64,000 nucleotides of DNA from an uncultured Acidobacteriota bacterium (GCA_963824165.1 CAWGOM010000008.1:67140-131139), one strand, 5' to 3'. Positions 22,136-45,968 are shown, counted from the first letter of the stretch. Notes: generated by a model not told the origin, from the sequence alone. Made by a program: numbers and translations.

Positions 22136-22213
22136 GACGTAACGACGTCACGACTCCTCGGCGAGCTCCGAGCCGAAGGCGAGGAGCGAGTCCGCTGCAC
22201 CCGCGGGTTAGGC
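22136..22213 (-). repeat. attC (terminal, distal arm divergent)
   Basis: Right end cgagtccgctgcacccgcgggttaggc is canonical. The left end is gacgtaac...cctcggcgag. Confidence 0.75.
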
Positions 22214-22927
22214 CGCATCCGGGACCTGCCCCGCGCGCAGCGCGAGCCACGCGATAATTCCAGAGTTGAGATCGACAAGGACGTGGAGCACGATCGCTGG
22301 CCAGAGGGAGCCGAAAATCGCCACCACCAGCGTGAGGAACGTGCCGACGATTCCCGTGCGGAGGGCGCCATTCCATCCCTGGTAAGCATGCGAGCTCGCG
22401 AAGATCAGAACTGACAGCGCCGCCGCGCCCCACCAACCGAGCCACGGGGCCAGGGCCCAGATGAAGTACCCCCGGAACAGGAACTCCTCGCAGAACCCCG
22501 CGGTCAGCGACACCCCTCCGAACCAGTACAGTTCGGTTCGCGTGTGCGGCCCCGTGACGTCGGCGAGCTTCCCCATCTGCTGCCGCACGCTCGCCCTGAG
22601 CTGGGAGTCGCGGGCAACCGCCGCGGCCGATTGGACGTTATAGACCACGAGCAGCAGCACCAGGCCAACCGCCACCCACAACCGCCAGCCATCAGGCACG
22701 GAAAAGCCGAGTGAGGTCCAGGATCTGTCGTTGGCTACCCACAGCGCCGCCCCGACGGCGACCAGGGCCCACAGGCCACCCATGGCGCCGCTCCAGAGCC
22801 GCTTCCGAGCCCGCGCCGGATCGGCTTGCAACTGCCGATGAAATGCCGGCCAAAAGACGAGGTAGTCCCACAGCGGCATGGCGACCGCAAACAGCGAGAC
22901 GTAGAGCAGGTCGGGAAACGTGGTCAT
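22208..22927 (-). CDS. CPBP-family intramembrane metalloprotease (cassette)
   Basis: Starts at the Met at 22927 (MTTFPDLLY). Motifs EEFLFRGY, SSHAYQ and HVLVDL. The stop is the TAA inside the attC core. Confidence 0.8.
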   Translation of the reverse strand: MTTFPDLLYVSLFAVAMPLWDYLVFWPAFHRQLQADPARARKRLWSGAMGGLWALVAVGAALWVANDRSWTSLGFSVPDGWRLWVAVGLVLLLVVYNVQSAAAVARDSQLRASVRQQMGKLADVTGPHTRTELYWFGGVSLTAGFCEEFLFRGYFIWALAPWLGWWGAAALSVLIFASSHAYQGWNGALRTGIVGTFLTLVVAIFGSLWPAIVLHVLVDLNSGIIAWLALRAGQVPDAA

Positions 22928-22989
22928 CAGCACTCCGCTGGCAGTCTGGAACCACACATCCGGCTCCGGAGAGCCACGTCGCCGGCGCC

Positions 22990-23060
22990 GCCTGACGGGT
23001 GGCGGGTCAGCGGCGACCTCCGAGCCGAAGGCGAGGAGCGAGTCCGCGCGCGTGTTAGGC
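22990..23060 (-). repeat. attC
   Basis: gcctgacgggtggcgggtcagcggcga...gagtccgcgcgcgtgttaggc, 71 bp. Confidence 0.85.
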
Positions 23061-23453
23061 GGTCGGCCGCTTCTTGCCACGACGTGACTTCGGTGCCTTG
23101 CGAGGCCGAGGCGCTCTGGGCCGGACGTGTCGAGGCTGGTAGACGCCCAGCTTGCCACCGCCGGGGAGCGTCACGTGGGTAAGCTCGCCCCAACCCACGC
23201 TCTGAATCGGGCCGCAAGCAACTCGTCGCCTCTCCATTTCCGCAACAAATGCGCGGATATCCCCGCACATGAAGTAGAACTCGTGAACGTCGTTCCTCCG
23301 CGACGGATGAACGGCAAGCTCGGCCGGCGGGAGGCCGAAGATGAGCCAGCCGCCCCCGGCGTCGACGTGCGGGAGCCCAAGGATGTCGCGGAGAAACGTC
23401 CGGTCCAACTCCGGTTTCCGGCTGTAGATTATCGAATGAGCGCCGATGATCAT
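23055..23453 (-). CDS. VOC/glyoxalase-family protein (cassette)
   Basis: 132-aa ORF MIIGAHSIIYSRKPELDRTFLRDILGL with a basic tail. The stop is the TAA in the attC core. Confidence 0.7.
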   Translation of the reverse strand: MIIGAHSIIYSRKPELDRTFLRDILGLPHVDAGGGWLIFGLPPAELAVHPSRRNDVHEFYFMCGDIRAFVAEMERRRVACGPIQSVGWGELTHVTLPGGGKLGVYQPRHVRPRAPRPRKAPKSRRGKKRPTA

Positions 23454-23499
23454 GTGCGTCTCCCATGCAGAACGACGTGCGCGTGGGCGGATCTTCGGC

Positions 23500-23575
23500 C
23501 GCCTACCGGGTGGCGGGTCAGCGGCGAGTGACCAGCCGAAGGCGAGGAGCGAGTCCGCCGCACCCGCGGGTTAGG
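23500..23575 (-). repeat. attC
   Basis: gcctaccgggtggcgggtcagcggcgag...gagtccgccgcacccgcgggttaggc, 76 bp. Confidence 0.85.
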
Positions 23576-23619
23576 CGGCCTGGCGATGCGTGCACCAGCG
23601 GGAGCGATTCGCATCTCTT

Positions 23620-24045
23620 TCATGCAGTTCCTTCTTCGAAGAAGAGCGCCATCGTATCGGCCGGCCAGTCCATCGCCCGATTCGTCCCCTTGTCCACGCA
23701 CGCGACGATCATGAGGCAGCGCGACAGGCTCTTGCCAGCCTCATCGACCATAGTGCACTCGATGTGCGCATCGGGTCCGCGGAACTCGCGCACGAACGAC
23801 GTGATCGTGATCTCCTGGTCTCCGACGGCAGGCTGTACAAAGTCGACTTCCATCTTTCGGACCCAGGCCATGAATGGCAGCTTCGCAAGAGTCTTCAAAT
23901 CCCAGCCGACATACTCACGTAGGCCATTCATCCGATGATCGACGTAGTAGCCCGAATACACTGCCGTCCGGAGATGATTATAAGGATCGAGCTCGGAGAA
24001 CTTGATCCTGTGCGTGCTCTTGAAAACTACCGGCATTGTCGGCAT
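23620..24045 (-). CDS. hotdog-fold acyl-CoA/ACP thioesterase (cassette)
   Basis: 141-aa ORF with HRIKFSELDPYNHLRTAVY...MEVDFVQPAVGDQEI, the 4HBT-like pattern. Confidence 0.7.
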   Translation of the reverse strand: MPTMPVVFKSTHRIKFSELDPYNHLRTAVYSGYYVDHRMNGLREYVGWDLKTLAKLPFMAWVRKMEVDFVQPAVGDQEITITSFVREFRGPDAHIECTMVDEAGKSLSRCLMIVACVDKGTNRAMDWPADTMALFFEEGTA

Positions 24046-24173
24046 TCGGCTCCTTTATGTCTCGCGGAAGCCGCCGCTGGCGGGGCGACGCGCTGCGAGC
24101 CCCGGACACGCAACTTCCACGCATTGCGGCTGCCGTATCGAAGGTTGGAGACGATGGACTCTGCGACCTAAGC

Positions 24174-24238
24174 CGCCTACCGGGTGGCGGGTCAGCGGCG
24201 CGGATTCGCCGGCAGGCCGACCGCCGTCTTCCGTCAAC
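24174..24238 (-). repeat. attC, degenerate
   Basis: The left arm gcctaccgggtggcgggtcagcggcg is canonical. The right arm ends ...cgtcaacg instead of gttaggc. Confidence 0.55.
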
Positions 24239-24255
24239 GCAACCCCATCAGTCCG

Positions 24256-26321
24256 TCAAATCGCCAGTCCAACGTCGCCTTCGAGCACCGATGTCTTCAG
24301 CTGCGGGCGCTCTCCGCTCTTCCACAGTGCAGCAGTGTGTAATACCCGATACCTGATGGGCCCCCCGTCCGGTCTTTCGCTGCGCGCAATGGGGCGCGGG
24401 ATGCAGACATACTCGGTGCGCATCTCATCGGCCGACAATTGGACCTTCGCATAACCGTGTCCTCCAAGATCGACGAACTCGAGGTGCGGAGCGAGATCCG
24501 GGTTGGACAGCGACCGTGCGCGCTTGAGGTCGAAGCTCTTTGCATATTCGAGGCACGCACGGACGCCGTGCTTCAGCAGCATGTTGAAGGTCCAGTCCGG
24601 CTTCGCCCCCGCCTCCCTGTCAGCAAGAAACAGCGGTCGTAGCGGAGCGTCCTTCGGAAGTTTGTGCTCATAGGCCTCCATGGCGCCGGGACTGACGAGT
24701 GACGCGCCAACGAAACTCAAGCCTACCGGCTCGAACTTGCCGGGGGGAAGTTCCGCAGTCGCATATCCGGCCCAGAAGCTGTGGCGATCGCCCGAGACGA
24801 TGGCGAAGCCCGTAATCTTCGCGTCGCGCACGAGATGGTAGATTTCCGCGCGCTCTGCGTACGCTGTGCCGTAATCACCCCCGCCCAGGGCTGCGAACGT
24901 GTTCTGGGGCCAGGACTCCTTGGTGAGACCCGCGCGGCAGGTTCTGCGGGTCGGCGCGCCAATCCAGCGCGCCCAGCGAGTTGCGCCCAGATTTTCCACG
25001 CCGCGGTCGAGCTCTTGAGCTTGTCCTTGAACCATGCCTTCTGCTCCGCCCCGAGAATCGTTTGCGGCGGCGCGCTCCGTTGCGGGTTGGGGACATGCGC
25101 ATCGTTGAACCGGATTTCCGGAGGAGGATTGCCGCCGTTGAAGCCGCGCCCGCCGTCGAGAACCTGCATCTCAGACTCAGGAAACATCCCGATGAACTCG
25201 TCGCCGCCGAGCTTTCCGAGAGACGGATCGCTGAAGGGATCCGCGCTCCGATAGCTGTGCTGGTCGGTGATGATCAGGTCCAGGTGCTGACCGTACCGCA
25301 GCGCCCGGTAGGCCTTGAGGCTGTTGATCGCCGTCAGGTTGTTCGGTTCCATCCCCAGCCCATCGCTATCGAACTCCTTGATGGGAACGTCTTTTACAGC
25401 GGGTGGATCGAAACGCTCGAGCAACCCGCTCGGCGGAGCGACACGTGCGGGGAGGTATTCGAACCAGGCCTGATTCGCCGCGACCTTGACGCTCTGGCCG
25501 GGCTGCTCGAACGACCCCGCCTTGACGATGCTTTGCCAACCTTGCCACGAGAATTCGTGGTTGTCCCAGATGGCGACGAACGGCCAGCGCGCGCGAGCGT
25601 CCTGGAGGTCGGGATCGGCGAGATAGCCTTTGTAGATGGCCCGGTAGCCGTCGACGGTCAGCGGTATGTGGAAGTTGCCGACCTTTGGGCCGTCCGGGAG
25701 GCGCGCAACCTCATAGATCGTGCGGTCGTAGCGTGTCTTCACCTCGTCGGGATACTCGACCACCTCGTAGATGAAATCGCCCAGGTGCAGAACGAAGTCG
25801 AGCTGTTGGGCGGCGGGAGCGCGTTCATCTTCGTAAATCATCCGGCGATAGGCGTTGAGCTTGCCCTCATTGACATCCTGACAGCTCACGAATGCGAAGT
25901 TCACCGTGCGCGGATCGTTTGGCAACGGCGCGGTGATCGTGCGGCCGACCCGGCTGCCGTTTCCGTCGGTGTCGGTAAACCGATACCAGTAAGTGCGCGC
26001 CGGCTTGAGTCCGCCAATCAGAACGCGCGCGGTCCAGTCCGCGGCGCTCGAGACCGGTGCCTGCGCGTGCGCAATGACTCGGCGGAATGCCTCATCCTCG
26101 GCGACCTCGACGGTCAGGAGCTGGCGTGTGCCCTGGGCAAACGGACGCCTCGTCCACAGGATGACGCTGTGCGGATCGGGATCGCCCGAGGCGACCCCCT
26201 GGGGATAGAGATCACGCCGCTCATGCCAGTGGACACGCGAACCTCGAGCCGGTCCGACCCATGCGAGCGAAGCACCGATTGCTGCTGCAGCTTTGAGAAA
26301 GGATCGGCGGCTAATCTTCAT
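24256..26321 (-). pseudogene. phoD: PhoD-family alkaline phosphatase, Tat signal, two frameshifts (cassette)
   Basis: N-terminal part MKISRRSFLKAAAAIGASL...GVASGDPDP. The sequence after ...TAAWKIW continues as GNSLGALDW in frame 2 (ORF 24875..25102), then AGLTKESWP... in frame 3 (ORF 24256..25035). Confidence 0.8.
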
Positions 26322-26613: not shown

Positions 26614-26674
26614 GCCTAACGCTCCGGTTCAGCGGCCGCAACGCAGCGCCGTCCGCTGCAACCGGTTGTTAGGC
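26614..26674 (-). repeat. attC, short subfamily
   Basis: gcctaacgctccggttcagcggc...gtccgctgcaaccggttgttaggc, 61 bp. Confidence 0.85.
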
Positions 26675-26773
26675 GGGGCAAGCCCACACGCCGCCTTGCA
26701 GCCAAGGACTCCGAACGAGACAGTGTTGCAGGTTGATTCCCCATCGGCCGAGGGGTTTCGGCGCCTTGGTCTG

Positions 26774-27235
26774 CTATGCGTCATCGTACGCTCTCTCCAG
26801 TGCCGCCACGTCCAGCTTCACCATCGTCATCATCGCTTCCATCACAGCCTGTACCTTCTTTGGGTTCTTGTCGCTGATGAGCTCCATGAAACGCCTCGGG
26901 ACGATCTGCCAAGTAATGCCGAACGGATCGGTGATCCAGCCACACTGCAATGGGGTTGCGCCGGCGCTGACGAGCTTGTTCCAGTACTCGTCAACTTCTT
27001 CCTGGTCTTCGCAGTCGACAAAGAGCGAGAAACCTTGGGAGAATGTGAAGTACGGGCCGCCGTTGTAACCCATGAAGGACTGACCACCGATGACGAATTC
27101 GGCGGAAGTGACTGGGCCGTCCTTACCAGTGCGCGCGACGCTCTTGATCTCCGAGTCCGGGAATGTCGCAGTGTAGAACGCCATTGCAGCGTCGAGTTGG
27201 TCGTTGAACATCAGGAAAGGTGTCACTTTGCGCAT
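26774..27235 (-). CDS. VOC-family PhnB-like protein (3-demethylubiquinone-9 3-methyltransferase domain) (cassette)
   Basis: Starts at the Met at 27235. Contains VTPFLMFNDQ...GGQSFMGYNGGP...CGWITDPFGITWQIVP. Confidence 0.75.
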   Translation of the reverse strand: MRKVTPFLMFNDQLDAAMAFYTATFPDSEIKSVARTGKDGPVTSAEFVIGGQSFMGYNGGPYFTFSQGFSLFVDCEDQEEVDEYWNKLVSAGATPLQCGWITDPFGITWQIVPRRFMELISDKNPKKVQAVMEAMMTMVKLDVAALERAYDDA

Positions 27236-27262
27236 CTGCGTGTCTCCTCTTCTCGGGTCTCC

Positions 27263-27338
27263 GCCTAACGGGTGGCGGGTCAGCGGCGAGCTCCGAGGCG
27301 AAGCCGAGGAGCGAGTCCGCTGCACCCGCGGGTTAGGG
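27263..27338 (-). repeat. attC
   Basis: Canonical 76-bp family member; the right core reads gttaggg. Confidence 0.9.
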
Positions 27339-27910: not shown

Positions 27911-27986
27911 GCCTAACGGGTGGCGGGTCAGCGGCGAGCCCCGAGGCGAAGCCGAGGAGCGAGTCCGCTGCACCCGCGGGTTAGGC
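27911..27986 (-). repeat. attC
   Basis: Canonical 76-bp family member. Confidence 0.9.
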
Positions 27987-28005: not shown

Positions 28006-28260
28006 TTACCGAATGATGCGTTCGTACTCCGCGTGGGTACCGATCCAGAACCAAACGACTCTGTCTGCGGCGTCGACTCCAAGAGCTCGGTACGACCGCC
28101 CCACACGAACCGACCAGAACTGCCCAAGCCGCTTGAAGTGCAGAGAGGGGTGGTACGGATTCGACTGGAGCAGGCCGTAATTCTTGCGCGCCAACTCCTG
28201 AACGTCGGCTGGCAGCCTCTCCAGACTGGCCCAGAACCGAGACGTTGCGAGGTGCTTCAA
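28006..28260 (-). CDS. RelE/ParE-superfamily toxin (cassette)
   Basis: 84-aa ORF containing ...FWSVRVGRSYRALGVDAADRVVWFWIGTHAEYERI. It overlaps the upstream antitoxin ORF by 4 nt. Confidence 0.7.
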   Translation of the reverse strand: MKHLATSRFWASLERLPADVQELARKNYGLLQSNPYHPSLHFKRLGQFWSVRVGRSYRALGVDAADRVVWFWIGTHAEYERIIR

Positions 28261-28457
28261 ATCTCCCTGGTCTCGCCCCGCTTGTGTTCGGCCAGAGCCT
28301 CCGCCGCAAGACGATCAAGCTTTCCCGCCTTCACATCGGCTTCCATCTGCCGATCCCAAGCGTCGGCATCGTACTTCGCAAACCAGTCACGAAATGCCGC
28401 AAGCTCCTCAGCCGACAGCTTCTCGATCTCACGTTCGAGAGTCTCAACCTTGCTCAT
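28257..28457 (-). CDS. antitoxin partner (addiction-module component) (cassette)
   Basis: MSKVETLEREIEKLSAEELAAFRDWFAKYDADAWD..., a small acidic helical protein overlapping the toxin start. Confidence 0.6.
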   Translation of the reverse strand: MSKVETLEREIEKLSAEELAAFRDWFAKYDADAWDRQMEADVKAGKLDRLAAEALAEHKRGETREI

Positions 28458-28518
28458 GGCCAAATGATACCAAGCAGCCAATCTCTCTGCCCATCAAGAG
28501 GTTCAGGTTGCTTCCGTG

Positions 28519-28582
28519 GCCTAACGCTCCGGTTCATCGGCGGCCCGCGCAGCGAGCCGTCCGCTGCAACCGGTTGTTAGAC
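28519..28582 (-). repeat. attC, short subfamily
   Basis: gcctaacgctccggttcatcggc...gtccgctgcaaccggttgttagac, 64 bp. Confidence 0.85.
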
Positions 28583-29289: not shown

Positions 29290-29365
29290 GTCTAACGGGT
29301 GGCGGGTCAGCGGCGAGCCCCGAAGCGAAGCGCAGGGGCGAGTCCGCTGCACACGCGGGTTAGGC
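29290..29365 (-). repeat. attC
   Basis: gtctaacgggtggcgggtcagcggcgag...gagtccgctgcacacgcgggttaggc. Confidence 0.9.
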
Positions 29366-29389: not shown

Positions 29390-30625
29390 CTACTGCCGCC
29401 CTGTCTGTCGTCCTTCATTCTTCAATGCCTCGGCGTGCTTCCAGAGCTCACGGAAGATGTCGACGTGGTGACGTTCTTCCTCGCCAGACAGCGAGGTGTT
29501 CGTGAACAGAATCACGCCGATATCCTTCGAGAGGTTTGTAAGCATCCAAGTCCTCAACCCGGGATCGGATCCGTTGTGTCCCATTCGAGTGACATTGAAT
29601 CTGCTTTGCCAGAAGAGTCCGGAGTTGACTTCCTGAAGGCTCACATTTGCCGGCTTGCTCGACTCAGTGTACTGAAAACGGGTCATCTCCTCTACCCAGC
29701 GCCTATCCAGGATCCTTGTCCCCCCGTACACGCCGTCGTTGATAATCGCGATGAAGAACTTCGAGAGGTCAGACACGGACGTACGGACACCGCCATCCGG
29801 ATAGGTCGTTAGCTCATAGAGCTGTATCGGAATGCTAGAGCCGTTCTGCGTCACGTACAGCGTCGTGTGCTTAACCGGATCAACCTCGGACAGACGCCAA
29901 CCTGAATTGCTCATTCCCAGAGGAACAAAGATGCGCTGCTTCGCATATGCGTTTAGCTTCATACCTACGGCGAGCTCGACAACATAGCCGGCCAGCCCGG
30001 CCGCGATGTTCGAATACTCGCGGTGCGTCCCCGGCTTGACGTTCAGGAAGTTGTCTTTCGAGTAGTGCGTCCCGCTCGGCACGACGTAGCTCTTTAGAAA
30101 GTCGCCCAAGGGCTCCGGGGCGTCGCCGCCGTAATGGTACGTCTCCTCGTAAACCGACGGTCGGTCGGTGATGCTTGAGGTATGCGTCGCCAACTGCCGC
30201 AGGGTGATCTTCTCATTCGGATAGTACGGATTGCTTACCCTGAATGGCAGGTAGGAATTGATGTCCTCATCGACGGAGAGTTTGCCCTCCTGGACCGCAC
30301 GCATCAGCGCCACGCCCGTGAACGTCTTGCTAATCGAGCCGATGTTCATGACCGTATCGGGTGTAAAGGCCACGGCGCGTCCTTTGTCGGCAAATCCGTA
30401 GCCCTTCATCCATACGACTTTCTTGTTTACGATAATGGCCGCACCAAGACCCACGATTCCGGCCGCCTCCATCCGCTGGCCAATGAGGCTGTCAATCGTA
30501 TGGTCTGCGCTTGAGGTTGGTGGTTGGGACTGGTCTCCATCCTTAACCTGTCCTGTTACCTGTCCGGTAAGCAGGTAGATGGCGGCAGTCGCGATCGCTG
30601 AAATTATTACTGCGTTGCGTTGCAC
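29390..30625 (-). CDS. beta-lactamase-fold serine hydrolase (class C / family VIII esterase-like) (cassette)
   Basis: 411-aa ORF with N-terminal anchor, S-x-x-K motif (GSISKTF) and YSN motif. Visibly more A/T-rich than its neighbours. Confidence 0.8.
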   Translation of the reverse strand: MQRNAVIISAIATAAIYLLTGQVTGQVKDGDQSQPPTSSADHTIDSLIGQRMEAAGIVGLGAAIIVNKKVVWMKGYGFADKGRAVAFTPDTVMNIGSISKTFTGVALMRAVQEGKLSVDEDINSYLPFRVSNPYYPNEKITLRQLATHTSSITDRPSVYEETYHYGGDAPEPLGDFLKSYVVPSGTHYSKDNFLNVKPGTHREYSNIAAGLAGYVVELAVGMKLNAYAKQRIFVPLGMSNSGWRLSEVDPVKHTTLYVTQNGSSIPIQLYELTTYPDGGVRTSVSDLSKFFIAIINDGVYGGTRILDRRWVEEMTRFQYTESSKPANVSLQEVNSGLFWQSRFNVTRMGHNGSDPGLRTWMLTNLSKDIGVILFTNTSLSGEEERHHVDIFRELWKHAEALKNEGRQTGRQ

Positions 30626-30723: not shown

Positions 30724-30799
30724 GCCTAACGGGTGGCGGGTCAGCGGCGAGTGACGAGCCGAAGGCGAGGCACGAGTCCGCTGCACCCGCGGGTTAGGC
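30724..30799 (-). repeat. attC
   Basis: Canonical 76-bp family member. Confidence 0.9.
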
Positions 30800-30802: not shown

Positions 30803-32048
30803 TCAACCATTAGCTGACTCCACGGTTACCGACGTGGCCAGGCGGAAGGGTTGGACCTTGCCGTAAGTGAGACTCCGCCAGCACCACTCTGCTGGTCCAA
30901 AGCGGTATCGCGTCATCCAGGCTCGCGCCAGCACAACCTGCACCACGTAGCCTACGACGGCGACGGCAGCGAGTCCCGCCGGTCCCACTTTTCCCATGAG
31001 CGCAGGCCCGTGTGCGAAGCCGTAGAACATCCAGATGCCGAAGAGCGTCTGGAGCAGATACCACGTCAGGGCCATACGGCCCATCGGGGCGAGCAGGCTC
31101 ACCACCCGTCTCCAGCGCGCGACGAGAAACGCCAGAGCAACGGCGGACGCGTAGGCCAATGTCAGCCCGAGCTGACCTCCCTCGACGAGCAGCCGTCGAC
31201 TGAACGCCAGCCACGGATTGTCAGGAGCGCCCGTCAGAACTCTCCCGGCGAAGATGCTGCTTCCGACTACGCCAACGAGTCCTCCGACGAGAAGGACCTT
31301 TCGAAGCAACGTGCGATGCCCGCCAAGGTTCCCCAGGTTGAGCGTGCGGGCAACGTAGAGCCCGAGAATGAGGCGCCCGAAGACGGCCACTTGGTATCCG
31401 ATCTGATCGATGGAGAGGGTCAGATACCAGTCGTACCGCCAGTTCGCCTTCAGGACCTCGCTGTAGCTCCCACCGCTGAATGCGGCGAGAGCCATCGCGT
31501 CGTAGTCGGTCGTTGCCGTGACCGGGTGGGTCAGTCCGGCCTCCGCGGCCGGCGACGAGCGCTGGGAGCAGCACGCCGGTCGCCAGTGCGATTCCGAGTA
31601 GGCGCCTGGGCGCGGTTCGCACGAAGAGCGGGAGCAGTACGGCCCAGAGGGCGTAAAAACGCAGAATGTCGAAGCACCACAGGAGCCAACCATGGATTGC
31701 CCCGATCGCGAACAGCCAGAAGATCCTCCGATAGAACGGCGCGGTCACCGACGTAGCTCTGCCGCCCACTCGACTTAGGAACAGCCAGAAGCTGATGCCG
31801 AAAAGAAGCGAGAAGAGACCCATGAACTTGTTCTCGATGAAGAATCGCTCGAAGAAATAGGCGATGGTATCGAGCCGACCGCGGAATAACGACGCCCGTT
31901 GCTCCTCGGTCAGGTACTCGATACCCGAGAAGATCAGCAGGTTCGCCCAGAACACGCCAAAGAGGGCAAACCCTCGGAGTGAATCCACGAACTCCACGCG
32001 CCCGGCTGCGGGTATCGCGTCGCCGACATCTCTCATCCGTCGCCCCAA
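30803..32048 (-). pseudogene. DUF418 (YeiB-like) membrane protein, one frameshift (cassette)
   Basis: N-terminal part (ORF 31221..32048) contains FVDSLRGFALFGVFWANLL. The C-terminal part (ORF 30803..31693) contains ...MALTWYLLQT...RYRFGPAEWCWRSLTYG. The shift is near 31560. Confidence 0.8.
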
Positions 32049-32446: not shown

Positions 32447-32522
32447 GCCTAACGGGTGGCGGGTCAGCGGCGAGCCCCGAAGCGAAGCGCAGGGGCGAGT
32501 CCGCTGCACCCGCGGGTTAGGC
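32447..32522 (-). repeat. attC
   Basis: Canonical 76-bp family member. Confidence 0.9.
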
Positions 32523-32780
32523 GCCGGCGACGAGGGGAAAGCGCTCGGGATGCTCGATGGATTCCACCGAGAGATCCACGTCGAGATCCGGCCAGTAGAG
32601 ATGATCTGCATGTGGCCACTCGACATTGAGAATCTTCGAAACCGGCGCGCTGGCAAACCAGGGGAACTTCTCGAACGAGACGAACAACTCCCGGCCCCCA
32701 AGGAAGAGCCAGAACCCTTGCCTCGATATGTTGGCAACTTCAACCTGCGAAGTGCCTGCGCCAAGCTTGTCGGATCTCAT
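32517..32780 (-). CDS. DUF2442-family protein (cassette)
   Basis: Starts at the Met at 32780. Contains ...VEVANISRQGFWLFLGGRELFVSFEKFPWF...HLYWPDLDVDLSVESI. The stop is the TAA in the attC core. Confidence 0.65.
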   Translation of the reverse strand: MRSDKLGAGTSQVEVANISRQGFWLFLGGRELFVSFEKFPWFASAPVSKILNVEWPHADHLYWPDLDVDLSVESIEHPERFPLVAGA

Positions 32781-32982
32781 CTTGCCGCCTCTCCAAAAGC
32801 TCTTGAATTCTAGCAATCTCGCGCTCAGGAAAGCCGTAATTTGCGTGCAACTCGACCTGCGGCTCCATCCAAAACTTCGCTTCTGCCTCAGCGGATTGGA
32901 CATGAACGTGCATCCGCGCCTCTTCCCTGGAGAAGAAGAACACTCGGATGCCGCCCTCCCGAAAGACAGTTGCTGCTTCGGC
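32740..32982 (-). CDS. DUF4160-family protein (cassette); start codon unresolved
   Basis: GIRVFFFSREEARMHVHVQSAEAEAKFWMEPQVEL...EIARIQELLERRQDEIRQAW. No ATG/GTG/TTG lies between the attC and this motif, so the start may be inside the attC. Confidence 0.6.
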   Translation of the reverse strand, partial: AEAATVFREGGIRVFFFSREEARMHVHVQSAEAEAKFWMEPQVELHANYGFPEREIARIQELLERRQDEIRQAWRRHFAG

Positions 32983-33061
32983 GCCTAACGGGTGGCGGGT
33001 CAGCGGCGAGCCGGGGCGAGCGCAGCGAGCCACGCGAGTCCGCTGCACCCGCGGGTTAGGC
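32983..33061 (-). repeat. attC
   Basis: gcctaacgggtggcgggtcagcggcgag...gagtccgctgcacccgcgggttaggc, 79 bp with a variant centre. Confidence 0.9.
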
Positions 33062-33325: not shown

Positions 33326-33384
33326 GCCTAACGCTCGGCATCAGCGGCACGCGTAGCGCCGTCCGCTCCATGCCGTTGTTAGAC
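33326..33384 (-). repeat. attC, short subfamily
   Basis: gcctaacgctcggcatcagcggc...gtccgctccatgccgttgttagac, 59 bp. Confidence 0.8.
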
Positions 33385-34213: not shown

Positions 34214-34289
34214 GCCTAACGGGTGGCGGGTCAGCGGCGAGCCCCGAGCCGAAGGCGAGGACCGAGTCCGCTGCACCCGCGGGTTAGGC
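34214..34289 (-). repeat. attC
   Basis: Canonical 76-bp family member. Confidence 0.9.
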
Positions 34290-34723: not shown

Positions 34724-34799
34724 GCCTAACGGGTGGCGGGTCAGCGGCGAGCCCCGTAGCGAAGCGTAGGGGCGAGTCCGCTGCACCCGCGGGTTAGGC
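34724..34799 (-). repeat. attC
   Basis: Canonical 76-bp family member. Confidence 0.9.
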
Positions 34800-36538: not shown

Positions 36539-36614
36539 GCCTAACGGGTGGCGGGTCAGCGGCGAGCCCCGTAGCGAAGCGCAGGGGCGAGTCCGCTGCA
36601 CCCGCGGGTTAGGC
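36539..36614 (-). repeat. attC
   Basis: Canonical 76-bp family member. Confidence 0.9.
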
Positions 36615-36975: not shown

Positions 36976-37051
36976 GCCTAACGGGTGGCGGGTCAGCGGC
37001 GAGCCCCGAAGCGAAGCGCAGGGGCGAGTCCGCTGCACCCGCGGGTTAGGC
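36976..37051 (-). repeat. attC
   Basis: Canonical 76-bp family member. Confidence 0.9.
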
Positions 37052-37600: not shown

Positions 37601-37676
37601 GCCTAACGGGTGGCGGGTCAGCGGCGAGCTCCGAGGCGAAGCCGAGGAGCGAGTCCGCTGCACCCGCGGGTTAGGC
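37601..37676 (-). repeat. attC
   Basis: Canonical 76-bp family member. Confidence 0.9.
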
Positions 37677-37827: not shown

Positions 37828-39090
37828 TTAGGTCGCTGCCGGCGAGCGGAACGGCTGCCTCCGGCCGTATGTGAGCGACCGCCATGCCCACTCGGCTGGC
37901 CCGAAACGGAACCGCCGGAGCCACCATGCGCTGGCGATTGCCTGGGCTACGAACACCGCGAGGGTCACCCCAAGGGCGGCCGTGGGGCCCACCTTGCCGT
38001 ACCACCCGAGGCCCAGTCCGTAGAAGAGGAAGACGCAAATGACGCTCTGCCCGACGTAGTTCGTGAGGGCCATCCGGCCCACCGGAGCGAAGAGATACAA
38101 CCGTGGACGCCACACCGGGCGCCGGAACAGGAGGACAATCCCACAGACGTAGGACGCCGCGAGGGCCACCACGCCGAGGTTCCAGAGCACCGTCCGCGCA
38201 ACTCTCGCCGGCCACGACTCCCCAGCCAGCACGGGGAGATACTCGTCCGCCAGGAGGATGCCCTGACAGGTCAAGCCGAGCGCGAGCCCGCGCACGAGCC
38301 CGCGCCGTACGAATGCCACGGCTGAACTTTCCTCACGATTACTCTCATGACCTGCGCTCGCACGGACGAGGATACCGGTACGGCCGGCCCACAATCCGAG
38401 AAGGAACTTCCCGAAGCTCGCGACCCCGGTCTTCAGGGCGTCGTCCGTCGACAGCCACGCCCACACATCCGCCGCGTTGGCGCGGACCACGTCCGCGTAG
38501 GAGCCGTGGGCGAAGGCCGCGTGGAGCGCGGTTGCGGTCGCCAACCGTGCCTCGAACCCGCCGCCAAGATCGACTGCTCCGCCCGTGACGACAGGGAGGC
38601 TCAACAGCAACGCTTGGACGGCGGCCGGGACGAGGACGGCGAAGGCGAGCCCCCACCCGACGAGTGTCCGGTCGCTCGCGGAAACCCAACCGATCAGCAG
38701 CAATCCGAGCACGGCGTAGAGGTGAAGGATGTCGCCGTAGTAGATCAGCAACGCATGAGCCACGCCGAAGAGGAAGAGCCACAGCATCCTCCGGACGTAG
38801 AGGGGCTTCACGGCGCCCCCGCGCCCGCTCGCTCGCTGCATCTGGAGCGCGAAGCCGAGGCCGAAGAGAAAGGAGAAAATCGAGATGAACTTGTTGACGA
38901 CGAAGAAGTTCTCGAACTCGAGCACGAAAGGATCAAAGGCAGCGGTCGGCAGGCGTGCTGCGGCGTCTGGTTCGAGGTCCCCGTAACCGCTGAAGAACCA
39001 CAGGACGTTGGCCCAGAGCACGCCGAACAGGGCGAAGCCGCGGAGGACGTCGAGGACATCGATCCGCTCCCCGGTTGCGACCGGCGTCAG
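37828..39090 (-). CDS. DUF418 (YeiB-like) membrane protein (cassette); start uncertain
   Basis: ORF 37828..39021 plus an in-frame upstream ERIDVLDVLRGFALFG motif. The C-terminus is RRFRFGPAEWAWRSLTYG. No canonical start lies upstream of the motif. Confidence 0.75.
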   Translation of the reverse strand: MTPVATGERIDVLDVLRGFALFGVLWANVLWFFSGYGDLEPDAAARLPTAAFDPFVLEFENFFVVNKFISIFSFLFGLGFALQMQRASGRGGAVKPLYVRRMLWLFLFGVAHALLIYYGDILHLYAVLGLLLIGWVSASDRTLVGWGLAFAVLVPAAVQALLLSLPVVTGGAVDLGGGFEARLATATALHAAFAHGSYADVVRANAADVWAWLSTDDALKTGVASFGKFLLGLWAGRTGILVRASAGHESNREESSAVAFVRRGLVRGLALGLTCQGILLADEYLPVLAGESWPARVARTVLWNLGVVALAASYVCGIVLLFRRPVWRPRLYLFAPVGRMALTNYVGQSVICVFLFYGLGLGWYGKVGPTAALGVTLAVFVAQAIASAWWLRRFRFGPAEWAWRSLTYGRRQPFRSPAAT

Positions 39091-39194: not shown

Positions 39195-39270
39195 GCCTAA
39201 CGGGTGGCGGGTCAGCGGCGAGCCCCGTAGCGAAGCGTAGGGGCGAGTCCGCTGCACCCGCGGGTTAGGC
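39195..39270 (-). repeat. attC
   Basis: Canonical 76-bp family member. Confidence 0.9.
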
Positions 39271-39666: not shown

Positions 39667-39742
39667 GCCTAACGGGTGGCGGGTCAGCGGCGAGCTCCGA
39701 GCCGAAGGCGAGGAGCGAGTCCGCTGCACCCGCGGGTTAGGC
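39667..39742 (-). repeat. attC
   Basis: Canonical 76-bp family member. Confidence 0.9.
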
Positions 39743-39747: not shown

Positions 39748-40746
39748 CTAGACCTCATGCTGCAAGGTCAAGACAATTCTCCCCGGACTCGATCCGCGCT
39801 CGACGGCCTCGTGCGCTGAAGAGATGTCGTCAAGTGGGACGCGCGCTTCGATGTCGAAACCAAGCCAGCCGTTCCGCAGCGTATTGTTCAAGGCAGAGGC
39901 GGCCTCAATCTTTGCCGCCGTGGGGAAGTCGTCGCTGCCCAGGAAGAACATCGCAACGTTCTTGAACACCAGAGGCCAGAACGGGATCGTCGGTGTTGGG
40001 TTTCCGGTCGCGTACGTCGCGATCGAGCCACCTTGCAACAGGATGTGCTCGTCAGTCGCAATGTTCGCGTGAAAGGCCACCTCGACAATATGGTCTACGC
40101 CTTCGGATGCGTGAGCGAGGATGCTTTCGGCCGCCGCTTGGGTCGAGAGGTCGCCGGTGACGATGACATGGTGTGCGCCAGCCCGTTCCGCGACTACCCT
40201 GTCCTGTTCGGAGCGAACCGTTGCGAGCACGGTGGCACCGGAATGCCGCGCCAGCGCGACAGCACACTGTCCGACAGCGCCAGCACCTCCCTGGACAAGA
40301 ACCGTTCGCCCATCGACCGGGCCGGCGACATGGACGGCTCGGTGGGCAGTGATGCCGGGAATACCCAGGCAGGCACCTTGCTCGAAGCTCACATTGACCG
40401 GCAGCGGCACGGCTCGATCGGCCGGTACGACAACAAACTCGGCGGCTGTCCCGAATGGCCGGTAACTCTGCGCTCCGAAGCACCACACCCGTTCGCCGAG
40501 TCGAGACACCGACACCACGTCGCCAACCTTGTCGATGACGCCAGCGCCGTCGCTGTGGGGGACGACCCGCGGATACGGCATGCCGACACCGAACATGCCC
40601 TGACGCTTCTTGACGTCGCCGGGGTTGATGCCGGAGACGGCGATGCGGATGCGAACCTCGTTCGGGCCCGGTTCAGGAGTAGGCATCGCGCCTACAAGGA
40701 GAACCTCGTTGGCGGCGCCCTGGCGTTCGTACCAAGCTGCTCTCAT
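39748..40746 (-). CDS. NADPH:quinone oxidoreductase / zinc-type alcohol dehydrogenase (MDR) family (cassette)
   Basis: Starts at the Met at 40746: MRAAWYERQGAANEVL...VSGINPGD...VLVQGGAGAVGQCAVALA. Confidence 0.8.
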   Translation of the reverse strand: MRAAWYERQGAANEVLLVGAMPTPEPGPNEVRIRIAVSGINPGDVKKRQGMFGVGMPYPRVVPHSDGAGVIDKVGDVVSVSRLGERVWCFGAQSYRPFGTAAEFVVVPADRAVPLPVNVSFEQGACLGIPGITAHRAVHVAGPVDGRTVLVQGGAGAVGQCAVALARHSGATVLATVRSEQDRVVAERAGAHHVIVTGDLSTQAAAESILAHASEGVDHIVEVAFHANIATDEHILLQGGSIATYATGNPTPTIPFWPLVFKNVAMFFLGSDDFPTAAKIEAASALNNTLRNGWLGFDIEARVPLDDISSAHEAVERGSSPGRIVLTLQHEV

Positions 40747-40779
40747 GGTGCCCTCCGTCGGTGTGGCGTTCTTGGTGCG

Positions 40780-40855
40780 GCCTAACGGGTGGCGGGTCAG
40801 CGGCGAGCGCCGTAGCGAAGCGTAGGCGCGAGTCCGCTGCACCCGCGGGTTAGGC
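40780..40855 (-). repeat. attC
   Basis: Canonical 76-bp family member. Coordinates were fixed from the ORF 39748..40890 translation. Confidence 0.9.
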
Positions 40856-41056
40856 GACGCTTGTTCGCCACAGCGCCACGCTGCGATCACCCGCTTTAGC
40901 TCTGCGCCACAGACTCGATTCTCCGGGTGCCACCACTGCCTCTAGCTCTGACGTCAGACACCCTGCAACCCACGACTCGCGACTATCGTTGCCGACCCGG
41001 CTGCGCCGCCACGCTGGAAAAGCCCCGGGCAGGAAGGAGCAACTCGGGGACCTCAT
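40850..41056 (-). CDS. hypothetical small ORF (cassette)
   Basis: 68 codons from the Met at 41056, ending on the TAA in the attC core. No similarity recognised. Confidence 0.3.
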   Translation of the reverse strand: MRSPSCSFLPGAFPAWRRSRVGNDSRESWVAGCLTSELEAVVAPGESSLWRRAKAGDRSVALWRTSVA

Positions 41057-41068
41057 TCCTCCCACGTC

Positions 41069-41184
41069 GCCTAACGGGTGGCGGGTCAGCTGCGGGCGCC
41101 CCGCAGCGATGAAACCCCTGACTCGCGACAACTTCCCTGCGCGGCAATCCCAGGGCGACCGTCAGCTGCACCCGCGGGTTAGGC
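41069..41184 (-). repeat. attC, long variant (116 bp)
   Basis: Canonical outer arms. The inner helix is changed to cagctg/cagctg on both arms, and the centre is enlarged and contains the near-palindrome gctgcgggcgccccgcagc. Confidence 0.85.
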
Positions 41185-41548
41185 GCCCCTTCCCTGTCGG
41201 GTTTACACGCCACGCGACACCTCGCTCGCACCAGGCCTCGACCACGGGATGCGCCGGCTGGCGCGCGCTACGGATTGTCCTCCCTCTCGCCACTCGCGCG
41301 CCAGAGCGGCGCGGATTACGACGGGGGGCGGGCCGACTGATGAGTCGTCTGATGCCAGCGCCGAATCCTCGAGCCACACTGCGCCCTGCTCCTGGAGCCG
41401 AGATAGTCGGCCCGCATCCCGCAGGCGGACGGCGCGCAGAACTTCTACCGATTACGCCAACCTCTCCCCTCCGGACACAATCGCGAGCCTCGCGATCGTC
41501 GACGCGACTATTCAGCCCGCGCGACGGCCGCCGTCTTGAGTCCGAAGC

Positions 41549-41625
41549 GCCTAACGGGTGGCGGGTCAGCGGCGAGCGCCGAGGCGAAGCGCGAGGAGCG
41601 AGTCCGCTGCACCCGCGGGTTAGGC
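41549..41625 (-). repeat. attC
   Basis: Canonical family member, 77 bp. Confidence 0.9.
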
Positions 41626-42013: not shown

Positions 42014-42089
42014 GCCTAACGGGTGGCGGGTCAGCGGCGAGCTCCGAGCCGAAGGCGAGGAGCGAGTCCGCTGCACCCGCGGGTTAGGC
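42014..42089 (-). repeat. attC
   Basis: Canonical 76-bp family member. Confidence 0.9.
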
Positions 42090-42552: not shown

Positions 42553-42628
42553 GCCTAACGGGTGGCGGGTCAGCGGCGAGCTCCGAGCCGAAGGCGAGGA
42601 GCGAGTCCGCTGCACCCGCGGGTTAGGC
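42553..42628 (-). repeat. attC
   Basis: Canonical 76-bp family member. Confidence 0.9.
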
Positions 42629-42907
42629 GCCCTTTGATAGCTCACGCTGGAGCCGCTCGGCTAGAAACTGTTTCAGCAACGACTGATATGGGATGTCACG
42701 CTTGTTGGCCAGTACCTTGAGGTGACCGATCATCGACTCAGGCAACCTCAGAGAGATTGTGCGAAGGGTCGGACGCAGATTCGGGAAGGCTCGCCGCTGA
42801 GCACCGGTCCAGTCCACGAAGTCAGCCGAATCGTGTTCAGCCCAGAAGCTGCGCTCCTGCTCTTCAGATTCGAACTTTGGAATCTGCTTACGCTTTGCTT
42901 TGCTCAT
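42623..42907 (-). CDS. brnA: BrnA antitoxin (cassette)
   Basis: 94-aa ORF with ...FESEEQERSFWAEHDSADFVDW...ISLRLPESMIGHLKVLANKRDIPYQSLLK. The stop is the TAA in the attC core. Confidence 0.8.
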   Translation of the reverse strand: MSKAKRKQIPKFESEEQERSFWAEHDSADFVDWTGAQRRAFPNLRPTLRTISLRLPESMIGHLKVLANKRDIPYQSLLKQFLAERLQRELSKGA

Positions 42908-43196
42908 AGGTTTGTAGTTCCCTTCGGGTCATGTCGCGTACCGAGATCACTCGGATGAGAGACCTTCGAACGGTAAAGCTGATGAAGAGCCGGCGCCCGG
43001 AGTCCGCATGGCCGAGCGCGAAGTAGCGAGACTCGGAAGCAGAATGCTCGCGATCGGGCGAGACAACCAGTGGCTCGTTGAAGAAGACCTCCTCAGCCTC
43101 CCAAAACGGCACCCGGTGACGGTCCCAGTTCTTCTCGAGGTTGCCGTCATCCCAATCAAAGCCGGTACAGCCTGCCAGGGGGTCATCTGCCGCCAC
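42888..43196 (-). CDS. brnT: BrnT toxin (DUF497 ribonuclease) (cassette)
   Basis: 102-aa ORF with FDWDDGNLEKNWDRHRV...EAEEVFFN...RVISVRDMTRRE. It overlaps brnA. Confidence 0.8.
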   Translation of the reverse strand: MAADDPLAGCTGFDWDDGNLEKNWDRHRVPFWEAEEVFFNEPLVVSPDREHSASESRYFALGHADSGRRLFISFTVRRSLIRVISVRDMTRRELQTYEQSKA

Positions 43197-43243
43197 GCCG
43201 AGAGTATATGGCAGACATATACGCGGCGCAAGACCCTCAGGGC

Positions 43244-43319
43244 GCCTAACGGGTGGCGGGTCAGCGGCGAGCGCCGTAGCGAAGCGTAGGCGCGAGTCCG
43301 CTGCACCCGCGGGTTAGGC
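43244..43319 (-). repeat. attC
   Basis: Canonical 76-bp family member. Confidence 0.9.
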
Positions 43320-43744: not shown

Positions 43745-43820
43745 GCCTAACGGGTGGCGGGTCAGCGGCGAGCTCCGAGCCGAAGGCGAGGAGCGAGTCC
43801 GCTGCACCCGCGGGTTAGGC
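43745..43820 (-). repeat. attC
   Basis: Canonical 76-bp family member. Confidence 0.9.
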
Positions 43821-44248
43821 GGCCTCGACGGGAGTCTCCAGTCGAGGCTTGCCAAAGTGCGTTCGTAAATCGGCAAAGTAAACAATGCCCAGGATCAGGC
43901 CTGCAGCGAGTGTGGAGAGCAGCGCCGCAGCTCCTGGCGGGCCGGGATACGACACGAGCGGCCTTCGAAGAGGGTGCCCACGACTCCCAGTAACCAGCCA
44001 GCCGTGTAAATGGCTCGAGCCCTCGCACCACTGCCGCCAGAGCCCAATCCAGCCGACGATAAGGACAAGCGAAACTACCGCCCTCCCACCAGAAAGCGAC
44101 GCCCTCCTGCCTGCTCTTCTGTTGCTCTACGAAACTCCGAAATTCTGGAGGAAGCGAACCTCTCGACAGCAATGACGCCACCACCCAGATAAGACCAAAC
44201 GTGATCTCGCTCGAGAATCAGGATCCTGAGCACGCGATGAAGTTTCAT
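43815..44248 (-). pseudogene. hypothetical membrane protein, frame-disrupted (cassette)
   Basis: Starts MKLHRVLRILILE at 44248. The C-terminal TM segment AALLSTLAAGLILGIVYFADL... is in another frame and ends on the TAA in the attC core. Confidence 0.4.
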
Positions 44249-44260
44249 TCGTCTTAGGCC

Positions 44261-44336
44261 GCCTAACGGGTGGCGGGTCAGCGGCGAGCGCCGAGGCGAA
44301 GCCGAGGCGCGAGTCCGCTGCACCCGCGGGTTAGGC
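44261..44336 (-). repeat. attC (first, closest to attI)
   Basis: Canonical 76-bp family member. Confidence 0.9.
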
Positions 44337-44346
44337 GGCGGCACGA

Positions 44347-44580
44347 TCAGAGCCCTCCGAGAAGCCGAGTCATGACGAGGATTACCAGACACCCGACAAT
44401 GATGAACGAACCCAAGAACGAGCCGCGGAGGAAACTCCTGTCGGGATGCCGGATTCCAAGCCAGATTCCACCAACAACGACAACCAGCCAGACTAGCAAC
44501 ACGGAGTAGGCCGCGACTGGGGTGACAAGAAGCTCAAGCAATGTGCCTGGTGCTTCTTCGGCTGCGAATGCAGGCGGCAA
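44347..44580 (-). CDS. hypothetical small membrane protein (first cassette)
   Basis: 77-aa ORF with 2 TM segments. A signal-like N-terminus (V)KRSLLATSGFLVTLAVGVCVPVIAS starts at GTG 44657 in another frame, so a frameshift is possible. Confidence 0.45.
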   Translation of the reverse strand: MPPAFAAEEAPGTLLELLVTPVAAYSVLLVWLVVVVGGIWLGIRHPDRSFLRGSFLGSFIIVGCLVILVMTRLLGGL

Positions 44581-44687
44581 GAAGCGATCACAGGGACACA
44601 GACGCCGACAGCGAGAGTGACGAGGAAGCCGCTGGTCGCGAGGAGGCTCCTTTTCACTGCTATTGCGGCCACGGTCTAGTTCCGTCC

Positions 44688-44768
44688 GCCTAACGCTCGC
44701 ATAGGCTGTAACTTCGACTTCCTAAGCGTTCCTGTCAATCGCTGCATCGTCCACCGCCCCTCGTCTCT
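44688..44768 (-). other. candidate attI site
   Basis: A single core GTTAGGC on the minus strand (plus-strand gcctaac, 44688-44694) with no partner arm. It is preceded by GTTACAG and CTTAGGA core-like boxes and lies between the intI stop and the first cassette. Confidence 0.65.
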
Positions 44769-45968
44769 CTATTCATCTACGTCCTCGGATTCCGAATCAT
44801 CGGGAAGTTCCTCACCGGTCAGAAGTAAACGCTCCGGGGGCACGAGCGACGTCAGGTAGTTAGGCTGCGAAGAAAGCTGTCTAGTGTCAGGACCGCCGGC
44901 GACGCCGGCCCACAGGATGTCGGCAGGGCTGCGGACGCCGCGTCCACCACGGTTCAAAACGTGGGTGTAGATCATGGTCGTCTTCACGTCTCTGTGGCCG
45001 AGGAGCTCCTGGATCGTGCGGATATCGTACCCCTCTTCGAGCAGGTGGGTGGCGAAGGAGTGGCGGAAGGTGTGGCAGCTGATCCGCCTGGAGATGCCGA
45101 CGTCGAGGACGGCGCGACGAAGGGCGCGCTGGATGACGGTCTCGTGCAAGTGGTGGCGGCGCTCGGGTTGGAGGTCGCCGGGCGCGGTGGGGTTTCGGAC
45201 GGGCGGTGCGGCGCCAGGCTGGCCGGGGCGCCTCTCTCCCCCGCGGGGGTCGTGGCTGCGGTGTTCGCCGGGGAAGACGTACTGCCAGCCCCACTCGCGG
45301 TCGGAGCCGGGGAACTTCCTCGCGATGGCGTCGGGCAGGTAGACGGTCCCGAATCCGTCGGCGAGGTCCTTCTCGTGGATGCGCTTGACGCGGGAGAGCC
45401 AGGTGGGCATCTCGGCGCGGGCGACGAGGGGGAAGGGGACGACGCGGTCTTCGCCGCCCTTGGTGTCGCGGACGACGATGCGGTTGTTGCCGAACTCGAG
45501 GTCCTTGACGCGCAGGCGCAGGCATTCGAGGAGTCGCATTCCCGTGCCGTAGAGAAGTGTCGACACGAGGCGGGGCGTCCCGTTCATGCGGCCGAGGATG
45601 CGGCGGACTTCCGCGCGGGTGAGCACGCTCGGGAGGCGGCCGGGGCGCTTGGCGCGGATGACGGTGTCGAGGTCGGGCAGGGGTTTCTGGAGGACGTGGC
45701 GGTAGAGGAACATCAGGGCCGAGAGGGCCTGGGTCTGGGTCGACGCGCTGACGGGACCTTCGACGGCGAGATGCGTGACGAAGGCATTGATCTCGGGCTC
45801 GGCCATCTCGAGGGGATGGCGTTTGTTGTGAAACAGGATGTAGCGGCGGATCCAGCCGACGTAGGCCTCCTCGGTGCGCAGGCTGTAGTGGCGGGCGCGG
45901 ATGGCCTGGCGCACGCGGTCGAGCAGGCGCGGCTGGCCGGGAGGGGGAACGACGGTGGAGGACGCCAC
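44769..45968 (-). CDS. intI: integron integrase IntI
   Basis: 399-aa ORF with [38 protein letters not shown], the IntI-specific segment [43 protein letters not shown] and [14 protein letters not shown]. Confidence 0.92.

Follow-up and report, generated by a model that had tools for sequence, protein, structure and literature searches.

A complete chromosomal integron with inverted-integrase layout in an uncultured Acidobacteriota genome

The stretch of DNA analysed here, 64,000 nucleotides from an uncultured Acidobacteriota bacterium (GCA_963824165.1 CAWGOM010000008.1:67140-131139; hereafter the window, with positions counted from its first letter), contains a complete integron, composed of the integrase gene intI, a conserved attachment site (attI) and 28 attC sites at positions 22137-44336. 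Read along the minus strand, intI is followed by about 75 bp of non-coding DNA that hold attI and end in its last box, GTTAGGC, with the presumed crossover after the G, and then by 28 cassettes, each of them closed by an attC site. We interpret this element as a sedentary chromosomal integron of the 'inverted integrase' type in a genome of the Thermoanaerobaculia, a reading to which we assign a probability of about 0.93. A first-pass annotation, made by a model from the sequence, had already proposed a large sedentary chromosomal integron with about 29 attC sites, and this proposal holds: the array is long, its attC sites share a mean identity of 92.6%, its flank is syntenic in many metagenome-assembled genomes (MAGs), and no transposase was found in the array or in the searched open reading frames (ORFs) of the flanks. 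The array is real, with its count corrected to 28. What the annotation missed is the inverted type, as the array does not diverge from intI but lies downstream of its 3' end on the same strand.

The integrase and its attachment site

Integrase gene and attachment site:
44769..45968, minus strand: intI, integron integrase of 399 aa with a GTG start (TIGR02249, PF00589, PF13495)
45162..45242, minus strand: Pro/Gly-rich insertion in the IntI-specific segment, about aa 243-268 (VchIntIA alignment)
44772..44924, minus strand: clade-specific C-terminal extension of IntI, about 50 aa, with the acidic end ...DVDE (clade alignment)
44688..44745, minus strand: attI (conservation in about 29 related genomes; similarity break after GTTAGGC)

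The recombinase encoded next to the array is IntI and distinct from XerC and XerD. It reaches 433 bits on the NCBIfam model TIGR02249 'integron integrase' (cut-off 265), as opposed to 146 bits for XerC and 143 bits for XerD, with the XerC, XerD and XerA models spanning 143-164 bits and all of these scores lying under the respective cut-offs. A comparison of this kind had been suggested in the first-pass annotation, and it comes out on the side of IntI. The protein contains the Pfam domains PF00589 and PF13495, and its best match among solved structures is IntIA of Vibrio cholerae (VchIntIA; PDB 2A3V, E = 7e-84). The alignment with VchIntIA runs through the segment specific to integron integrases, where the residues of this integrase are paired with LPTALKEKYPNAPYEFRWHYLFP; both the 399-residue reading frame and the peptide that the annotation had quoted from this segment are indeed present. 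Moreover, an alignment with eleven relatives shows no variation at the catalytic residues R145, K170, H299, R302, H325 and Y334 (RKHRHY). On the class 1-type model NF011946, the protein stays below the threshold (318.7 bits, cut-off 435).

Two regions set this integrase apart from VchIntIA. The insertion in the IntI-specific segment comprises 26 residues, compared with 3 in VchIntIA; its length varies within the clade, and it is missing from relatives at 74-78% identity. The C-terminal extension, by contrast, is kept across the clade. Its ratio of nonsynonymous to synonymous substitution rates (dN/dS) is 0.18-0.73, as opposed to 0.10-0.15 for the core of the protein, indicating that the tail is translated and less constrained than the core. 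An exhaustive search of 1.84 billion representative proteins with the 51-aa tail yielded no homologues beyond IntI, returning just two IntI fragments and a spurious eukaryotic leucine-rich repeat protein. A structure prediction for IntI by AlphaFold2, based on a 12-sequence alignment, had a mean pLDDT (predicted local distance difference test) score of 43.7, with both the insertion and the tail unreadable.

The tail-coding part of intI also contains a copy of the inverse core, GCCTAAC, at 44859-44865 on the minus strand, about 165 bp upstream of the attI crossover. Among the related loci considered in this study, which comprise 80 loci from a scan of one genome per species and are numbered with the prefix L, the equivalent position reads GTCTAAC in L001 and GCCTAAC in L002; judging from their protein sequences, more distant relatives apparently lack a GCCTAAC in the tail region. 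This copy could offer IntI an accessory binding site, or it may have arisen by coincidence from the codons for SQPNYL.

The attI region has the form of a simple site, with the L box GCCTATG (44706-44700) and the R box GTTAGGC (44694-44688) separated by a 5-nt spacer, and the crossover would fall between G and TT (44694/44693). This agrees with published work, in which attI is described as a pair of inverted boxes that bind the integrase and are spaced by 4-5 bp (PMC12614218). Further upstream within attI are the repeats CTTAGG and GTCGAAG and the hexamer TTGACA (44738-44733). When about 29 related genomes are aligned, a non-coding motif 3' of the intI stop codon, ...TTGACA...CTTAGGAAGTCGAAGTTACAGCCTATGCGAGC GTTAGGC, is conserved and the sequences diverge directly after the GTTAGGC; the breakpoints of blastn similarity to the relatives lie at window positions 44686-44688. 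In distant relatives, attI is shorter and reads GTCTAAG-TACAT-GTTAGGC.

The attC array and its orientation

The repeats that define the array are attC sites, conserved imperfect hairpins with the standard parts. The first-pass annotation had based its proposal on palindromes with GCCTAAC and GTTAGGC ends, and these heptamers indeed occur 50 times in the 64-kb window, compared with about 3 copies expected from dinucleotide-preserving shuffles (about 17-fold), with all copies confined to 22207-44865. The repeat itself is an imperfect palindrome of about 76 nt, present in a single orientation throughout, with RYYYAAC and GTTRRRY ends and a mean pairwise identity of 92.6% among 19 full-length copies. 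As a single strand, it forms a hairpin in which the R box contributes 7 bp and is followed by an unpaired central spacer, a stem that begins with the L box and contains two lone unpaired bases, an internal loop and a short tip of variable length (given as 59 to 116 nt), with fold z-scores of about -4 relative to shuffles. On the plus strand, both unpaired bases (C and T) belong to the 3' arm; they are conserved in 97-100% of the sites, and the first lies 16 nt from the 3' end.

This fold is borne out by sequence comparison. In a set of 93 distinct 76-nt sites, taken from both the window and its relatives, 92% of the proposed pairs are Watson-Crick pairs, as opposed to 21-25% with shifted partners. 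In 70 sites of the relatives, pairing is observed in 98.5% of the cells, compared with 24-41% with slid partners, and five pairs show compensatory changes, such as CG/GC at 13-61 and four pair types at 31-45. We then used a covariance model built solely from attC sites of related genomes, none of them from the window, and searched the window with filters off. This clade-specific model, which takes up the attC-model check suggested in the first-pass annotation, matched 26 sites at 34-101 bits (E <= 3e-6), all of them on the minus strand and within 22137-44336, while the same places scored at most 26.6 bits on the plus strand. Together with one long variant and one remnant, these 26 strong sites make up the total of 28.

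attC sites, in the order of the cassettes:
44261..44336, minus: attC 1 (97.9 bits)
43745..43820, minus: attC 2 (100.7 bits)
43244..43319, minus: attC 3 (92.6 bits)
42553..42628, minus: attC 4 (100.7 bits; fold z-score -4.2)
42014..42089, minus: attC 5 (100.7 bits)
41549..41625, minus: attC 6 (90.8 bits)
41069..41184, minus: attC 7, long 116-nt variant with enlarged terminal structure (partial model match, 17.5 bits)
40780..40855, minus: attC 8 (92.6 bits)
39667..39742, minus: attC 9 (100.7 bits)
39195..39270, minus: attC 10 (90.9 bits)
37601..37676, minus: attC 11 (100.4 bits)
36976..37051, minus: attC 12 (90.8 bits)
36539..36614, minus: attC 13 (89.6 bits)
34724..34799, minus: attC 14 (90.9 bits)
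34214..34289, minus: attC 15 (93.3 bits)
33326..33384, minus: attC 16, short 59-nt variant (34.1 bits; folded)
32983..33061, minus: attC 17 (71.8 bits)
32447..32522, minus: attC 18 (90.8 bits)
30724..30799, minus: attC 19 (100.8 bits)
29290..29365, minus: attC 20 (80.9 bits)
28519..28582, minus: attC 21, short 64-nt variant (37.2 bits)
27911..27986, minus: attC 22 (99.1 bits)
27263..27338, minus: attC 23 (92.2 bits)
26614..26674, minus: attC 24, short 61-nt variant (45.4 bits)
24175..24217, minus: attC 25, remnant, R'/L' half only (17 bits)
23501..23576, minus: attC 26 (86.7 bits)
22990..23060, minus: attC 27 (57.3 bits)
22137..22213, minus: attC 28, the last site, whose degenerate R' half marks the array end (51.8 bits)

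The long variant, attC 7, does not differ from the other sites in its R and L boxes and has a fold of -33.2 kcal/mol (z-score -3.0). No model-scored repeat was counted outside the array in the 64 kb. A weak model match at 18249-18320 lies inside a kinase gene, lacks the core sites and was dismissed as a chance hit; a lone GTTAGGC at 34125-34119, whose fold is no better than that of shuffles (z = -0.7), was not counted as an attC site either.

GC-rich intergenic palindromes are also typical of repetitive extragenic palindromic (REP) elements, and the repeats might in principle be REP-like or miniature inverted-repeat transposable element (MITE)-like sequences that happen to lie beside a Xer-like recombinase. 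We consider such an origin extremely improbable, given that the recombinase passes the integron-integrase threshold but not those of XerC and XerD, and that the repeats form one block, which starts at a conserved site 75 bp past the intI stop codon and has no counterpart elsewhere in the 64 kb. Their single orientation, their RYYYAAC/GTTRRRY ends and the canonical position of the unpaired bases also speak for attC sites, as does the movement of the units they bound between genomes as cassettes.

Three features define the reading direction of the element. Only in the plus strand do the unpaired bases fall on the 3' arm, this strand has a G after AAC, like most attC bottom strands (PMC2727003), and the ORFs are encoded by the minus strand; the plus strand is therefore the bottom strand, and the cassettes are read on the minus strand. 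The opposite assignment, with the minus strand and its unpaired G as the recombined strand, was rejected on the same three grounds and is also opposed by the C found at the same position in the attC sites of relatives with the canonical layout. With its distance of 16 nt to the end of the bottom strand, the first unpaired base takes the position of G16 in the V. cholerae repeat (VCR; PMC2727003). It is a C here, as opposed to a G in VCR, where a G16-to-C exchange had a minor effect in assays (PMC2727003).

In line with the first-pass annotation, which had placed all ORFs on the same strand, every ORF in the array with an above-cut-off Pfam match is on the minus strand. With intI, attI and all cassettes on this strand and the array downstream of the intI stop codon, the layout is of the 'inverted integrase' type, which has been described before (PMC4889954; PMC13323075; PMC3607928). 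The relatives share it to a large extent: in the 80 related loci, the best 300 of 379 model matches lie without exception on the intI strand, and only two of them are not downstream of intI. A simple hairpin scan of the relatives agrees with this downstream layout, while four distant loci (L053, L054, L063 and L064) show the classical upstream layout.

Cassette content and exchange among relatives

The cassettes, which range from 295 to 2445 bp in length, encode toxin-antitoxin pairs, small enzymes, membrane proteins and many proteins of unknown function. An above-cut-off Pfam match is present in 12 of the 28, among them a partial match to a phosphodiesterase.

Cassettes of note:
42623..43196, minus: cassette 4, BrnT toxin (42888-43196; PF04365, 84.5 bits) and CopG/BrnA antitoxin (42623-42907; PF12441, 105 bits)
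41185..41548, minus: cassette 7 body, ORF-less, multi-copy in relatives (comparison of copies)
39748..40842, minus: cassette 9, zinc-type dehydrogenase / quinone oxidoreductase-like protein (PF00107, PF08240)
37828..39021, minus: cassette 11, DUF418 membrane protein (PF04235, 148 bits)
32517..33048, minus: cassette 18, pair of DUF4160 (32740-33048) and DUF2442 (32517-32903) proteins (Pfam)
30803..31693, minus: cassette 19, second DUF418 protein (PF04235, 113 bits)
29390..30625, minus: cassette 20, beta-lactamase-fold serine hydrolase (PF00144, 195 bits)
28006..28481, minus: cassette 22, ParE-like toxin (28006-28260) and small upstream ORF (28257-28481) (PF24732)
26774..27325, minus: cassette 24, 3-dmu-9_3-mt / glyoxalase-fold, PhnB-like protein (PF06983, 131 bits)
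24256..26321, minus: cassette 25, PhoD-like phosphatase with twin-arginine translocation (TAT) signal, split over two reading frames (Pfam)
23620..24045, minus: cassette 26, 4HBT_2 thioesterase (PF13279)
22208..22957, minus: cassette 28, Rce1-like CAAX protease family (PF02517)

The array as a whole has a G+C content of 63.3%, compared with about 70% in each flank, and the cassettes that the first-pass annotation had singled out as A/T-rich are indeed so, at 57% G+C for cassette 20 and 60% for cassette 4. The hydrolase encoded by cassette 20 should not be called a resistance gene, because it reaches only 96.8 bits on the class C model NF033085 (cut-off 415) and thus matches the general PF00144 fold only. 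No cassette passed a curated threshold for antibiotic resistance or phage defence, and PADLOC returned no defence-system match for ten cassette proteins of unknown function. Rfam, searched at gathering thresholds, had no match anywhere in the window. Cassettes 7 and 8 lack a credible ORF.

The nearest proteins to IntI are thousands of metagenomic 'integron integrases', of which the named ones belong to the Thermoanaerobaculia, and the closest loci come from MAGs of uncultured Acidobacteriota/Thermoanaerobaculia. In dozens of these related MAGs, the platform occupies the same chromosomal position but is followed by other sets of cassettes. The best relative, L031 (CAVZNW010000004.1), shares 99% protein and 94.5% DNA identity; in this locus as well as in L003, L004 and L005, the upstream flank and intI are collinear with the window at 82-95% identity, whereas the arrays differ. 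In addition, individual cassettes recur at different array positions: cassette 14 is also found in L007 and L071, cassette 18 in L003 and L017, cassette 25 in L010 and cassette 26 in L004, while 11 copies of cassette 7 are spread over 6 related loci. The body of cassette 9 is 99.9% identical to L031:16445-17481, at a different position in that array, although the backbones are only about 91-95% identical. These comparisons point to recent insertion, excision and exchange of cassettes between related genomes.

The stability of the chromosomal site bears on the possibility that the integron is a mobile one, carried by a transposon, plasmid or genomic island. The reduced G+C content of the array and the toxin-antitoxin genes flanking intI would suit such a vehicle, but neither transposase nor conjugation genes were seen in the array or in the searched flank ORFs, and many MAGs, with contigs of 0.5-4 Mb, share the synteny of the upstream flank (imuA, imuB, marC). 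Given also that 28 cassettes with highly similar attC sites are the signature of a sedentary integron and that the class 1-type model stays at 319 bits (threshold 435), there is hardly any room for a mobile element.

Several points weigh against our interpretation. The element shows signs of decay, namely the frameshifted PhoD cassette, one remnant attC site and the degenerate final site. Furthermore, a sigma-70 promoter scan around intI and attI returned no passing site, and the central spacer of the hairpin departs from that of textbook attC sites in its partial pairing and its asymmetry (5 unpaired nt as opposed to 2 on the opposite arm). This particular IntI is presumably active. The decay signs and the lack of a detected promoter would suit a fossil integron, whose structure is intact but whose integrase is no longer active, so that the array is merely inherited; the unusual insertion and tail of IntI are candidates for effects on its activity. 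Such a state is improbable, however, given that the intI reading frame is intact, with all catalytic residues and a core dN/dS of 0.10-0.15, that 26 of the 28 attC sites are intact and 92.6% alike, and that close relatives differ in their arrays while sharing a cassette at 99.9% identity over 91-95% identical backbones, suggestive of recent exchange in the lineage. A sedentary, apparently active integron remains the reading that we favour.

A number of cassettes and array-related sequences deserve separate mention. The cassette 7 element (41069-41548) combines the lack of an ORF with the unusually long 116-nt attC site and is often present in several copies per array; the copies in relatives include L031:11610-11972, L004:17182-17544, L004:17664-18025, L003:16111-16473, L005:12094-12456, L005:12865-13226 and L005:20607-20969. 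In its copies, conserved blocks surround a stretch of some 35 nt that is hypervariable (at about 41337-41372 in the window). No ORF common to the copies was found, and RNAalifold, applied to eight of them, detected covariation in 3 of 104 pairs, the copies being too similar to claim an RNA or its absence. Cassette 8, with a body of 213 bp (40856-41068), is a second ORF-less cassette and recurs several times in L005, L029 and L011. The PhoD cassette 25 is adjoined only by the remnant attC site (24175-24217), and L010 contains an intact-looking homologous cassette at 94.9% identity. Outside the arrays, a ParDE-type cassette homologous to cassette 22 and equipped with a degenerate attC site is found upstream of marC and intI, in the same orientation, in L011 (8643-9193) and L029 (8583-9192); it could represent an off-target insertion or a relic. 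Past the last attC site of the window, the adjacent 2 kb (20000-22136) have a G+C content of 64.7%, nearer to that of the array than to that of the core genome, and small same-strand genes encoding DUF1801 (21062-21478) and DUF4386 (19723-20436) proteins follow the array end. The genes just past the last attC site may once have been cassettes that have since lost their attC sites through decay.

Expression, upstream genes and relation to known integrons

According to the established integron model, IntI would cut attC in the R box and recombine it with double-stranded attI, leading to cassette insertion, while recombination between two attC sites would excise a cassette. Given the shared direction of intI and the array, transcription of the first cassettes probably originates in read-through from intI and the genes upstream of it, in a weak promoter-like pair within attI, or in both. 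This pair, TTGACA-N17-(T/G)AAGTT, is partly conserved in the alignment of about 29 genomes.

The intI gene starts 4 nt past the stop codon of an upstream ParE gene, which is preceded on the minus strand by a second toxin-antitoxin pair with a PIN domain, marC, an imuB-like and an imuA-like gene. The interval 45972-50371 on the minus strand thus holds imuA-like, imuB-like, marC, PIN and antitoxin/ParE genes, which are co-directional with intI and separated by short gaps. The imuA-like gene lies at 49679-50371, and a divergent gene for an XRE-type helix-turn-helix protein at 50571-51158; the imuB-like gene is split into two overlapping frames (48012-48833 and 48707-49582), reflecting a frameshift or a sequencing error. 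Before the imuA-like gene, at 50401-50421 on the minus strand, all relatives contain the motif TTGA(G/C)TTACGCCTTATTTACGCCTAT(C)GT, even where its flanks have diverged; in the window, it reads TTGAGT, followed by TTACGCC-N4-TTACGCC and TATCGT. It resembles a -35/-10 pair whose spacer contains a direct repeat, the latter probably serving as an operator of the imuA-imuB mutagenesis genes. It is tempting to speculate that the platform forms the tail of one co-directional string, imuA-imuB-marC-toxin-antitoxin-intI-attI-cassettes, beginning at this promoter/operator motif, in which read-through from a mutagenesis operon of the DNA-damage type would switch on intI and the first cassettes. We regard this scenario, which draws on gene order, spacing and motif conservation only, as unlikely; if true, the known coupling of integron activity to stress would here be wired differently. 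The acidic 50-aa tail of IntI could add a further layer of control.

Among characterized systems, the superintegron of V. cholerae, with VchIntIA and VCR, offers close parallels in the IntI-specific segment, the long array of highly similar attC sites, the fixed chromosomal location and the cassette content, which includes toxin-antitoxin modules and many genes of unknown function. It differs from the window element in that the latter has an intI gene co-directional with the cassettes, an asymmetric central spacer, an acidobacterial host and an integrase with the 26-aa insertion and the 50-aa tail. In its layout, the element resembles the inverted integrons of the Treponema denticola type, in which intI is transcribed toward attI and same-strand cassettes lie downstream (PMC3607928; PMC13323075), although these belong to another phylum and have attC sites of another sequence family. 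The inverted-integrase group was found to be paraphyletic by Cury et al. 2016, and the type is handled by IntegronFinder 2. With class 1 integrons (IntI1, attI1), the window element shares an attI site composed of an imperfect inverted L box, a gap of about 5 bp and the R box GTTAGGC, with repeat-like sites upstream. Unlike them, it has no transposon, no resistance cassette above the curated threshold, the opposite relative orientation of intI and a score below the NF011946 cut-off.

Acidobacteriota are listed among the carriers of integrons (PMC8618304), and integrons of Acidobacteria have been used for a taxon-specific attC model (Ghaly et al. 2021, PMC8352920). The integrons of that study share the phylum and the chromosomal attC arrays with the window element, whose attC sites most likely belong to the same broad class; they differ in that the lineage of the window is represented by uncultured Thermoanaerobaculia MAGs. 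Both integrons of Acidobacteria and the inverted layout have thus already been published, and the related MAGs are public, with their integrases annotated. Minor oddities specific to this clade are the acidic 50-aa tail of IntI, the variable proline-rich insertion, the ORF-less multi-copy cassettes and the position behind imuA-imuB. The window element leaves the general knowledge of integrons unchanged, but it adds a well-resolved, large and apparently active integron from an uncultured soil acidobacterium, with a defined attI site and evidence of cassette exchange. It may help to annotate such MAGs and provides a set of IntI, attI and attC from outside the Proteobacteria for work on the inverted layout, in which cassette expression is poorly understood.

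Elsewhere in the window, ARAGORN predicts a tRNA-Arg(CCG) at 7524-7619, which at 96 nt is unusually long for that tRNA.

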